Shown one piece after another: positions 10,456 through 12,589 of a stretch of DNA of 64,000 bases; the stretch's first letter is position 1, and every line of letters starts with the position of its first letter. The notes below the pieces were generated by a model. The model saw nothing but the letters and a program-made list of their open reading frames with translations. It made no database searches and was not told the DNA's origin. Location of the stretch: positions 1 to 64,000 of IMG/VR virus record IMGVR_UViG_3300019487_000005; one strand, given 5' to 3'. This DNA comes from a virus. Made by a program: the position numbers and the translations under genes.

Positions 10456-10697
10456 GAGAGAACCATGCAACGCGAGCGAGCCAAAAAGCATGAGAGAAAC
10501 ATTTGACAAGAGCGAGCCATTAGGCAGGAGAGAACCATTACGTGGGAGCGAGCCACATAACGTGAGAGCACCATATAGCGGGAGCGAGCCATCACTCCAG
10601 AGAGAACCAGAATGCAAGAGCGAGCCATGAACCGTGAGAGAACCATTATCGAAGAGCGAGCCATTGAGCACGAGAGCACCATTACCCCGGAGCGAAT
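10456..10697 (+). repeat. TIGR-like array 1: 7 periods of 36 nt
   Basis: Each period is GAGAGAACCA-N8-GAGCGAGCCA-N8. Core starts fall at 10456+18n. There are 13 full cores plus a degenerate last core, GAGCGAAT. All 8-nt segments are unique. Confidence 0.9.
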
Positions 10698-11549
10698 ATG
10701 TCAACACAATTAGAGCCAATTCAAAAACTAACCAAAGACTTGCGCGAAGCATCGATCACCCTGTCCATTGATGAAGTACGCTTCCTTGTTGATGCTTACT
10801 ACACCATGCAGGAAGATCGGATTCGCGCATTTCATCAAGTGCGCACTCTGTCTGAAGGCAATGAGCCCCATGCCGTCGTAGGCTGGCTGGGCCAGCAAAC
10901 GGAAAGCTTGGAAAACCAGATCAAGCGGGCACTTCACGAATACGCCAAACACGATCCTATAGGTGAATGGATGTTGGGATTGACAGGTATCGGGCCCGTG
11001 TTGAGCGCGGGGTTTCTGGCGCACATTGATATTACGAAAGCGCCAACCGTGGGCCATATCTGGCGGTTTGCTGGCCTCGATCCAACTGTAAGGTGGGAGA
11101 AGAAAACGAAACGCCCGTGGAATGCGCGATTAAAAGTCATTTGCTGGAAGTTAGGTGAGTCGTTTGTCAAGACGAGCAATAACGAGAACTCAGTTTATGG
11201 CCCGATTTACAAACAACGCAAAGAGCAGGAGACGGAGAAGAACGAGCGCGGCGAATTCGCTGAGCAAGCAGCGGGAATTCTGAGGGAGAAGAAGATCGGG
11301 GAAAAGACTGATGCGTACAAGAGCTACATTCAGGGAAAGCTACCACCTGCTCACATTCATGCTCGGGCGACGAGATTTGCTGTAAAACTGTTCCTAGCAC
11401 ATTTCCACTTAATGGCGTATTTCAACCATTATGGAGTATTGCCGCCTAAACCTTACGCGATGGAGCATTTAGGTCATGTCCATATTATGTACCCGCCAAA
11501 TATTGAAAACATGTCAGAATTGCAAAAAGCTATTGATGCTGAAGGCTAA
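10698..11549 (+). CDS. Tas-like Nop / IS110-Tnp-like helix-hairpin-helix protein (no nuclease domain)
   Basis: Coiled-coil N-terminus followed by LTGIGPVLSAGFLAHIDITKAPTVGHIWRFAGLDP...RLKVICWKLGESFVK. No DEDD domain and no SG catalytic serine motif. Flanked by both arrays. Confidence 0.65.
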   Translation: MSTQLEPIQKLTKDLREASITLSIDEVRFLVDAYYTMQEDRIRAFHQVRTLSEGNEPHAVVGWLGQQTESLENQIKRALHEYAKHDPIGEWMLGLTGIGPVLSAGFLAHIDITKAPTVGHIWRFAGLDPTVRWEKKTKRPWNARLKVICWKLGESFVKTSNNENSVYGPIYKQRKEQETEKNERGEFAEQAAGILREKKIGEKTDAYKSYIQGKLPPAHIHARATRFAVKLFLAHFHLMAYFNHYGVLPPKPYAMEHLGHVHIMYPPNIENMSELQKAIDAEG

Positions 11550-12066
11550 AGGTTTTTGCCAGGCTTGTTATACGAGCAATTGGAGAAAGCAAAACCCGGA
11601 ACGTGCAAAACTGATTGCTCGTCGCTCGCACTACAAATACAAGGAGAAGAACAATAATCGGTCCAAAGAATATTACGAAAAACATAAAGAACGACTCCTA
11701 CGGCAACAACGCATTAGGGATTTACTCAGGATAGATGAGCGCCGTGACTACAATAGGAAATATGCAAAAGATAATAAGGAAAAACTTGCGGAATATTATC
11801 GAGCGTGGAGACTTGCATTCAAGTATGGCATATCAATTCAGGACTATGAAGACTTGTTAGAACAACAAGAAGGATTGTGCGCTATTTGTGGGGAGCCGCA
11901 ATCTACTGTCGCACTGAATGGTAAAAAACCGCTGCATGTAGATCATGATCATGTGAATGGTAGGGTTAGAGGTCTTCTTTGCAAGAACTGTAATACTGCA
12001 ATTGGCCATGTCGAAAAAACAAAATGGCTTGAGAAGGCCTTGAATTATCTAAACAACTCAAAGTGA
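11476..12066 (+). CDS. HNH nuclease, Endonuclease VII family, with N-terminal zinc ribbon
   Basis: GLCAICGEP...LHVDHDHVNGRVRGLLCKNCNTAIGH. CQNC...CQAC ribbon. Overlaps the upstream gene by 74 nt in the +1 frame. Confidence 0.8.
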   Translation: MSILCTRQILKTCQNCKKLLMLKAKGFCQACYTSNWRKQNPERAKLIARRSHYKYKEKNNNRSKEYYEKHKERLLRQQRIRDLLRIDERRDYNRKYAKDNKEKLAEYYRAWRLAFKYGISIQDYEDLLEQQEGLCAICGEPQSTVALNGKKPLHVDHDHVNGRVRGLLCKNCNTAIGHVEKTKWLEKALNYLNNSK

Positions 12067-12129
12067 GTCGTATCCGATAGCACATTTGAACCATGTGCAT
12101 AAAGTAGCTATGCCTTAGCCAGCAACTGA

Positions 12130-12589
12130 GAGAGAACCAAGTATGGAGAGCGAGCCATCGTTCATGAGAGAACCACGGGTCCAGAGCGAGCCATAACTGG
12201 CGATAGAACCAGAAAAGCAGAGCGAGCCATTTCCAGTGAGAGCACCACTGCCTGTGAGCGAGCCAACCGTCATGAGAGAACCACTTGAGCCGAGCGAGCC
12301 ACAAAATGTGAGAGGACCACTTGGGAAGAGCGAGCCAGGCAGTACGAGAGAACCAAGGTGTTAGAGCGAGCCAGCGTGGGTGAGAGAACCACTATGCGAG
12401 AGCGAGCCACGGTTTAGGAGAGTACCAGCTAACCAGAGCGAGCCATAATGCAGGAGAGAACCATGAGACGCGAGCGAGCCACCGCGGGCGAGAGAACCAT
12501 GAAACGGGAGCGAGCCATTCAACCTGAGAGAACCAACAAGCCGGAGCGAGCCATCCGTTATGAGAGAACCACAATACCAGAGCGATAGC
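12130..12589 (+). repeat. TIGR-like array 2: 13 periods of 36 nt
   Basis: Core starts fall at 12130+18n. There are 25 full cores plus a degenerate last core, GAGCGATAGC. Same orientation and same two core types as array 1. Confidence 0.9.

Follow-up and report, generated by a model that had tools for sequence, protein, structure and literature searches.

A probable dual-repeat TIGR-TasA system in a temperate tailed phage, with an HNH nuclease gene that appears to have inserted into the 3' end of tasA

TIGR-Tas systems (TIGR, tandem interspaced guide RNA) were described in 2025, and catalogues have since come to list over 20,000 tas loci as well as 6,685 arrays. According to the Science paper on these systems, a TIGR array has two alternating repeats of 8-12 nucleotides (nt), the "edge" and the "loop," with short spacers between them, and it is cut in the middle of the edge repeat to give 36-nt guide RNAs (tigRNAs). 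TasA, the commonest type of Tas protein, is reported to bind 36-nt tigRNAs (PMC12045711), and the TasA proteins that are linked to stem-loop arrays are RNA-guided repressors (bioRxiv 10.64898/2026.09.09.750476). The Tas proteins, the IS110/IS621 recombinases, and Nop5 of the box C/D snoRNP have the same RNA-binding fold, and all of them use guide RNAs with two guide segments (PMC12045711). Here we describe a locus from positions 1 to 64,000 of the virus record IMGVR_UViG_3300019487_000005 in IMG/VR (we will refer to this entire 64,000-nt stretch as the window). The locus has a gene for a 283-amino-acid protein, a gene for an HNH nuclease that overlaps it, and an array on either side of the pair. 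It is very likely a dual-repeat TIGR-TasA system that forms a cargo module in a temperate tailed phage, with the HNH gene as a secondary insertion. What carries this reading is the homology of the protein and of the repeats, the architecture of the arrays, a conserved pair of processing residues, the turnover of spacers in related loci, and the insertion history of the HNH gene. The original prediction, which was made from the DNA sequence without database searches, had already proposed a phage-borne TIGR-Tas system with dual spacers, and our results from NCBIfam, phmmer, and Foldseek, the likeness of the repeats to a characterized array, and the tailed-phage gene content all agree with it.

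The 283-amino-acid protein scored 211.9 bits against the NCBIfam model NF052498 (TIGR_Tas_endo, "TIGR-Tas system RNA-guided endonuclease"), for which the cut-off is 100 bits. When we compared it to the sequences in PDB with phmmer, it matched TasR (a chain of 9mty; E = 4.4e-15) as well as SpTasH (E = 1.7e-13). We also modelled its structure with AlphaFold2, using 26 homologues (mean predicted local distance difference test, or pLDDT, of 87.7; predicted template modelling score, or pTM, of 0.85). The best 11 matches of this model in a Foldseek search of PDB were all TasH-tigRNA or TasR-tigRNA-DNA complexes, and the IS621 bridge-RNA recombinase matched more weakly (E = 5e-3). The model is all-helical except for a C-terminal hairpin and begins with two long helices (residues 24-53 and 59-84), in the N-terminal place that the dimerizing coiled coil of Tas proteins occupies (PMC13421893). 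The original prediction had described a region shared with Nop domains and the IS110 Tnp domain; the match to Pfam's Transposase_20 is just below the threshold (20.7 vs. 21.3 bits), and the best structural matches were to TasH and TasR. Homologues are abundant (roughly 5,000 at E ≤ 1e-5), and in nearly all of the 120 matches listed, they are 260-300 amino acids long.

To judge from sequence and predicted structure, this protein is a Tas protein of the TasA type. In an alignment, the first ~87 residues of SpTasH, which form its HNH domain, have no counterpart in the 283-amino-acid protein. Similarly, the only families that it matched were Tas (in NCBIfam) and, weakly, Transposase_20 (in Pfam), and there were no matches to nuclease families. 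Because it lacks a fused nuclease domain, we classify it as TasA rather than TasH, and we will refer to the gene as tasA. Tyrosine 253 and histidine 260 (Y253 and H260) align with Y289 and H296 of SpTasH, which are reported to process the precursor of the guide RNA without metal ions (PMC13421893). Among the 26 homologues, H260 is invariant and Y253 is at least 90% conserved.

The arrays on both sides of tasA and the HNH gene are built alike. Each unit has the edge repeat GAGCGAGCCA, an 8-nt spacer, the loop repeat GAGAGAACCA, and another 8-nt spacer, which adds up to 36 nt (10 + 8 + 10 + 8), and the phase is strict in both arrays. When we laid out positions 10200-12900 in rows of 18 nt, the GAGAGAACCA and GAGCGAGCCA cores alternated without exception and stayed strictly in the 18-nt phase, and Tandem Repeats Finder reported a period of 36 for each array. 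The pattern GAGCGAGCCA-N8-GAGAGAACCA, with up to 3 mismatches, had 18 matches in the window, all of them on the + strand and within the two arrays, and no matches in 100 shuffles that preserved the dinucleotide composition. These results bear out the alternating cores and the 7 and 13 periods that were noticed originally. The extents given at first (10456-10697 and 12130-12589) do fall on the arrays, but the arrays start 13 nt earlier (Table 1). The 7 + 13 = 20 complete units contain 40 variable 8-mers and not 38, although it is correct that none of them is repeated. Both cores had been described as conserved, and this is true of GAGCGAGCCA, which is invariant in all 18 full copies, but 7 of the 20 copies of GAGAGAACCA have a single internal substitution, at position 3, 6, or 8.

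Both arrays open with an edge repeat shortened at its 5' end, AGCCA (at 10443 and 12117), with one further 8-nt spacer, and close with an edge repeat shortened at its 3' end, GAGCGA (at 10690 and 12580). This pattern of truncation shows which repeat is which: the edge repeat is GAGCGAGCCA, and the loop repeat is GAGAGAACCA. Truncated edge repeats at the ends are a described feature of TIGR arrays. The two repeats have a 5' GAG and a 3' CCA in common, as expected for binding to a symmetric dimer, and the loop repeat varies only in its interior. That internal substitutions are tolerated there fits the reported absence of sequence-specific contacts to the loop repeat in TasR. The terminal GAGCGA of the upstream array also provides a GGAG, 7 nt 5' of the ATG of tasA, while the downstream array ends 11 nt before the next open reading frame (ORF), whose ATG is at 12597.

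To see how such loci vary, we retrieved 160 related loci from IMG/VR and JGI metagenomes and called their arrays with a crude detector of similarity at a lag of 36 nt. After removal of redundancy, both flanks were present in 111 loci, and period-36 arrays adjoin tas in 98 of these: 67 have an array downstream only, 18 on both sides, and 13 upstream only, and the other 13 have none. In 96 of 110 cases, the downstream array starts no more than 120 nt from the stop codon of tas. In the related loci that we sampled, the commonest repeats are exactly GAGCGAGCCA and GAGAGAACCA, and the arrays are strand-oriented and run in the same direction as tas. The original prediction had suspected that the two-array layout was a variant organization. 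It is a normal layout: besides the 18 relatives, arrays upstream and/or downstream of tas had already been described (PMC12045711; bioRxiv 10.64898/2026.09.09.750476).

The spacers of related loci turn over quickly. Even where the Tas proteins are 100% or 99.6% identical, the loci have just 14-45% of their array 14-mers in common, and loci whose Tas proteins are 95-97% identical have almost none in common. (The turnover was seen in related loci; the two contigs that carry this phage are identical to each other.) Conserved cores with turned-over variable segments are what the original prediction had suggested looking for in related phages. Spacer turnover despite nearly identical Tas proteins favors guides and argues against iterons or a centromere.

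A few other features of the related arrays are worth recording. Gene callers often extend tasA into the array, which creates false C-terminal tails of the form "SEPxxxRAP..." (as in P0053, P0070, and P0091). In L123 (positions 4760-4800), the first edge repeat lies inside the last codons of tasA, so that array and coding sequence overlap. A related phage contig, L095, has an upstream array of about 1.77 kb (positions 2240-4013) with about 49 units, which far exceeds the 5-15 units that are said to be typical.

The second gene was originally described as encoding an Endonuclease-VII-type HNH nuclease, and this was correct. The protein matches Pfam's PF02945 with 80.2 bits (the cut-off is 23.6 bits; E = 1.1e-22), from position 3 to position 82 of the 82-position profile, and it aligns to Hpy99I and to T4 endonuclease VII. 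The AlphaFold2 model of this protein was too uncertain for a fold search (pLDDT 68, pTM 0.35). Gene callers place its start at the ATG at 11536, which gives 176 amino acids. We think that the ORF most likely starts at the ATG at 11476, as the protein then has the N-terminal CxxC...CxxC motif that its homologues conserve. From there, the ORF overlaps tasA by 74 nt, and the protein has the N-terminal CxxC...CxxC, a helical middle, and a C-terminal HVDHDH...CxxCN nuclease core.

HNH genes are rarely found beside tasA. None of the 153 other related tasA loci has one; in L144, an HNH homologue with 30% identity lies 1.7 kb away and on the opposite strand. On the other hand, the four closest homologues of the HNH protein (55-68% identity) are all encoded directly 3' of a tasA homologue (in L170/171, L172/173, L174/175, and L176), and in L170 and L172 an array follows the HNH gene. 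All five HNH proteins have the CxxC...CxxC that overlaps tasA, the helical middle, and an intact HVDH[DC]H...CxxCN core.

Comparison of these loci indicates that the 3' end of tasA received the HNH gene secondarily, by insertion. In 5 of 5 HNH-bearing loci (the window, L170, L172, L174, and L176), the HNH gene is followed by a second and decaying copy of the 3' end of tasA. The window's remnant reads YPIAHLNHVHKVAMP*, and its TAG stop merges into the first truncated edge repeat of array 2. The remnant resembles the native short C-termini of the nearest relatives that lack the HNH gene (YAIAHLGHAHKIAVP in L095 and YPIAHLGHVHLK* in L103) and is less like the C-terminus of the window's own functional TasA (YAMEHLGHVHIMYPP). 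In empty alleles, the 3' end of tasA passes straight into the array. An occupied and an empty locus can also be compared directly. The tasA bodies of L170 and of L123, which lacks the HNH gene (their Tas proteins are 78% identical), are colinear; L170 has an extra segment of 644 nt, consisting of a new tasA tail and the HNH gene; and the 3' end of tasA from L123 matches L170 on either side of that segment. Together, the remnants and the comparison of empty and occupied loci point to insertion of the HNH gene into the 3' end of tasA. A separate, overlapping nuclease gene had originally been put forward as another possible variant of the system. The arrangement is indeed rare, but the gene looks inserted, rather than being an established component of the system.

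(Other small ORFs lie between tasA and the downstream array in L026, at 1266-1490; L029, at 3885-4169; L099, at 2909-3256; and L129, at 4813-5443. Two of the four have zinc-ribbon-like pairs of CxxC, and none is an HNH gene. The junction between tasA and the array may be a recurrent insertion site.)

What does the HNH gene do there? We lean towards a homing-type mobile element, rather than a nuclease that acts in trans for TasA. Specifically, the gene may belong to a homing-type lineage that is specialized on tasA and is functionally independent of TasA, and from the sequence comparisons we give this somewhat better than an even chance. The gene is distributed sporadically, and empty and occupied alleles exist at one site in a conserved gene, as in free-standing homing endonuclease genes. 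The Tas proteins of the HNH-bearing loci are not monophyletic: those of L171, L172, and L176 form a tight clade, while the window's Tas groups with proteins from loci that lack the HNH gene. More distant HNH homologues, at 34-47% identity, are free-standing and adjoin genes for terminase, capsid, or DNA polymerase, and among 90 further HNH relatives from viral and genomic collections, none has a tas gene within ~3 kb. Some observations do not sit easily with a selfish gene. The four closest homologues all have the same position after tasA, the frame overlap is conserved, and the HVDH[DC]H...CxxCN core is intact at 55-62% identity. A conserved position, a frame overlap, and an intact active site would also be expected of a functional partner under selection, so these features are compatible with either reading.

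The main alternative is a split TasH, that is, that TasA and the free-standing Endonuclease-VII-type HNH protein form a two-gene RNA-guided nuclease. TasA with its tigRNA would open a 16-bp site into a double R-loop, and the HNH protein would cut in trans, either docked on TasA or by recognizing distorted, branched DNA in the way of T4 endonuclease VII. (T4 endonuclease VII is structure-selective.) We consider this doubtful, although several observations speak for it. Besides the shared position, the four nearest homologues follow tasA in matching orientation and with overlapping reading frames, and all five loci have kept an intact catalytic core and intact zinc-binding cysteines. Also, the HNH and Tas proteins of the window have diverged alike from those of the other loci, at about 55-62% identity. 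Nucleases have been proposed to have been added to TasA several times independently, which would make adjacency a plausible intermediate (PMC12045711). A more specific form of this idea, that the locus represents a gene-adjacency stage with a structure-selective HNH dimer, and that the module has been kept in at least five divergent phage lineages, strikes us as unlikely as well. Against any such partnership, there are just 5 clusters of these HNH proteins (at 90% identity), as compared to about 5,000 Tas homologues, and the gene was absent from all of the 153 sampled loci. A gene that invaded the locus is suggested by the scar of the insertion and by close relatives with empty sites; the Tas proteins of the HNH-bearing loci are not one clade; and the wider HNH family is found in contexts that are typical of homing endonucleases. 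Furthermore, the HNH domain of known TasH proteins is of a different type and is fused at the N-terminus, and a trans-acting nuclease partner is not mentioned in the TIGR-Tas literature that we searched.

We also considered whether the arrays could be protein-binding DNA repeats, such as iterons or a partition centromere, with the 283-amino-acid protein binding them as DNA. Regularly phased repeats do flank a gene with a helix-hairpin-helix-like region, and some TasA loci are reportedly operonic with ParB-like genes (PMC12045711). However, the variable 8-mers are not conserved between nearly identical relatives, all 40 of the window's spacers are unique, and the arrays of relatives are oriented and co-directional with tas. 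The repeats match those of the SpTIGR array, which has been shown experimentally to be transcribed and processed into Tas-bound RNAs (PMC12045711), and the 283-amino-acid protein has kept the RNA-processing dyad. No ParB or replication-initiator family was recorded among the neighboring genes. All this makes protein-binding DNA repeats very improbable.

Finally, an IS110-family transposase with a bridge RNA, a CRISPR-like array, or a repetitive coding region is scarcely credible, despite the borderline match to Transposase_20, the label "transposase" on the protein's family in PHROG (4285), and the presence of the IS621 recombinase among the weaker Foldseek matches: the protein lacks a DEDD/RuvC-like N-terminal domain and scores 20.9 bits against NCBIfam's transpos_IS110 (the cut-off is 140); there are two alternating 10-nt repeats instead of a single repeat of 25-36 nt, and there is no cas gene among the genes annotated here; a repetitive protein is unlikely, as there are stop codons in the + strand frames of array 1 and in all frames of array 2; and the arrays have no match in Rfam.

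Given the homology with SpTasH, FpTasA, and TaTasR, a TIGR-TasA system in this window would probably work as follows. Both arrays would be transcribed on the + strand by read-through within the surrounding operon. TasA dimers would bind pairs of edge and loop repeats via the common 5' GAG and 3' CCA, and the Y253/H260 dyad would cut within the edge repeat, independently of metal ions. This would free twenty 36-nt tigRNAs of roughly the form AGCCA-spacerA(8)-GAGAGAACCA-spacerB(8)-GAGCG. Each ribonucleoprotein would read a 16-bp DNA site, with spacer A on one strand and spacer B on the other, and would not require an adjacent motif. By default, RNA-guided binding would block the transcription or replication of a target in the host or in a rival element; we expect binding without cleavage because TasA lacks a nuclease domain. 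Other TasA proteins have been shown to repress their targets under RNA guidance (bioRxiv 10.64898/2026.09.09.750476). The insertion of the HNH gene would have brought a replacement tail for tasA and left the old end of tasA as the remnant before array 2.

Several points weigh against this account. Transcription, processing to 36 nt, and DNA binding are extrapolated from characterized proteins that are only 20-27% identical to the window's TasA. Typical TIGR arrays end in a terminator, and around these arrays, neither a promoter nor a terminator was predicted on the + strand: we found no + strand promoter around the module and no + strand rho-independent terminator in 9000-14000. (From this, we infer read-through transcription from the endolysin gene onwards.) Also, we found no target for the spacers, either within the window or across 1.5 Mb of related loci, and the matches were at the level expected by chance. 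The natural targets of most TIGR systems are unknown (PMC12045711).

The search for targets used the 20 spacer pairs in four opposite-strand arrangements with gaps of 0-2 bp. Within the window, there were 3 matches with 2 mismatches, as compared to 4.2 in shuffled controls, so we rejected self-targeting. In the 1.5 Mb of related loci, there were 3 matches with 1 mismatch, as compared to about 4 expected. One recurrent 8-mer, spacer B of unit 1 (TGCAACGC, at 10466-10473), together with its flanks corresponds to the codons of the conserved MQRD motif in tasA of other phages (L097 and L167). The partner spacer is mismatched there, and we judged the similarity to be due to chance. The spacers of the window do have a biased composition. 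C is at position 6 in 23 of the 40 (within 10448-10689 and 12122-12579), and position 8 favors T in spacer A and A in spacer B. Across 1,802 spacers from 74 related loci, the composition by position is nearly flat, with no such bias (the frequency of C at position 6 is 0.27). The preference for C is therefore not a feature of the family, and the bias in the window could be due to chance or could reflect the targets of this phage.

The window makes up nearly all of a 69-kb metagenomic contig (ENA ERZ27251177), and it matches, without differences, a part of a 52-kb contig from SRR7811987. Its genes for an integrase, an endolysin, a terminase, a portal, head proteins, and a tape measure protein (Table 1) indicate a temperate tailed phage. 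When we compared 24.6 kb of the window to 50,697 phage records with megablast, we did not find a close relative. The TIGR module is flanked by the endolysin gene and by small ORFs with hydrophobic N-termini (12597-12827, 13210-13479, and 13610-13879), so it seems to be an insertion in a lysis-type cassette. The TIGR module of Salicola phage CGphi29 lies among the head genes.

Table 1. Positions of the TIGR module and of other phage genes in the window.
Feature	Position	Strand	Description
Primase/helicase	start 1818		
Integrase	6913-8127	-	
Endolysin (muramidase)	9859-10440		
Upstream TIGR array	10443-10695	+	7 tigRNA units; repeats match the SpTIGR array
tasA	10698-11549	+	283 amino acids; predicted Tas protein without a fused nuclease domain
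Free-standing Endonuclease VII-type HNH gene	11476-12066	+	196 amino acids from the most likely start; in another frame than the 3' end of tasA
Remnant of the 3' end of tasA (pseudogene copy)	12071-12118	+	putative scar of the HNH insertion
Downstream TIGR array	12117-12585	+	13 tigRNA units; same architecture as the upstream array
Terminase large subunit	start 27510		
Portal	start 28878		
Head maturation protease	start 30247		
Major head protein	start 32386		
Tape measure protein	start 37567		

Elsewhere in the window, GGGTCGCAGGTTCGAGTCCTGCTCGGCTCACCA at 8316-8350 (+ strand), which adjoins the integrase gene, resembles the T arm, acceptor strand, and CCA that make up the 3' portion of a tRNA gene. 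This is a candidate attP core for integration into a tRNA gene of the host; neither ARAGORN nor Rfam identified a complete tRNA at this fragment. The second contig that carries this phage (L009) starts at position 8320 of the window, inside the tRNA-like fragment. About 45 tandem ACGGCT hexamers (63729-63997) lie at the very end of the assembled contig and are possibly an assembly break point or a coding repeat of the Thr-Ala type. Another short tandem repeat, of 18 nt (and 6 nt), at 20908-20990, triggered our lag-36 detector. It lies within an ORF of unknown function (20812-21990, 392 amino acids) and is not a TIGR array.

Since the TIGR-Tas family has been described, has been solved structurally, and is covered by an NCBI naming model that the window's protein passes, this locus is another example of TIGR-Tas and not a new kind of system. 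It is useful as a clean and complete case, with 20 intact guide units, in the nearly whole genome of a temperate phage. The part that deserves follow-up is the pairing of tasA with an HNH gene, which the TIGR literature that we searched does not mention. If a homing lineage parasitizes tasA, this would argue that tasA is conserved among phages and of value to them. If the HNH protein is instead a nuclease partner that acts in trans, this would bear on the origins of TasH and TasR, and it could yield a modular tool for editing.

Among the experimentally characterized systems, SpTIGR-TasH from Salicola phage CGphi29 (PDB 9w03, 9w04, and 21kl) is phage-borne, like the locus in the window. We read its array directly in the phage's sequence: its repeats, AAGCGAGCCA and AAGACAACCA, are nearly identical to the window's GAGCGAGCCA and GAGAGAACCA, and it too has 36-nt units with 10-nt repeats and 8-nt spacers on the strand of tas. 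Over the region that they have in common, SpTasH and the window's TasA are 27% identical, with the Y/H processing dyad conserved. However, the N-terminus of SpTasH carries a small fused HNH domain, while the window's TasA has no fusion, and the window's HNH protein, which is of the Endonuclease VII subfamily, is unlike that of SpTasH and is encoded by a separate downstream gene. SpTIGR has one downstream array with a terminator, instead of two arrays with no predicted terminator.

Dual-repeat TasA systems such as FpTasA, from Flavonifractor plautii, resemble the window in having no fused nuclease domain, but the spacers of FpTIGR are 9 nt rather than 8 nt. In the TIGR-Tas literature that we searched, no nuclease gene is described as associated with a TasA system, and the only operonic partner that is reported is ParB-like. 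TaTasR (PDB 9mty) has the coiled-coil dimer and the RNA-binding domain in common with the window's TasA (Foldseek E = 1.5e-6), as well as the tandem-spacer logic, but its nuclease is an N-terminal RuvC, its spacers are 9 nt long, and its box motifs are UG/CCA.

The HNH gene itself is most similar in character to the free-standing, homing-type PF02945 genes of phages: it matches the core of the family, it is distributed sporadically, and it lies in or beside a conserved phage gene with both empty and occupied alleles. Unlike the others, the window's sub-lineage occurs exclusively at the 3' end of tasA, which it overlaps out of frame, and homing is putative. Lastly, TasA is structurally similar to the IS110/IS621 recombinases, with the Foldseek match to IS621 given above. 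Unlike these recombinases and Nop5, the window's system has no DEDD recombinase domain and no fibrillarin or L7Ae partners, and it has an array of guides, where IS110/IS621 and Nop5 each use a single RNA.

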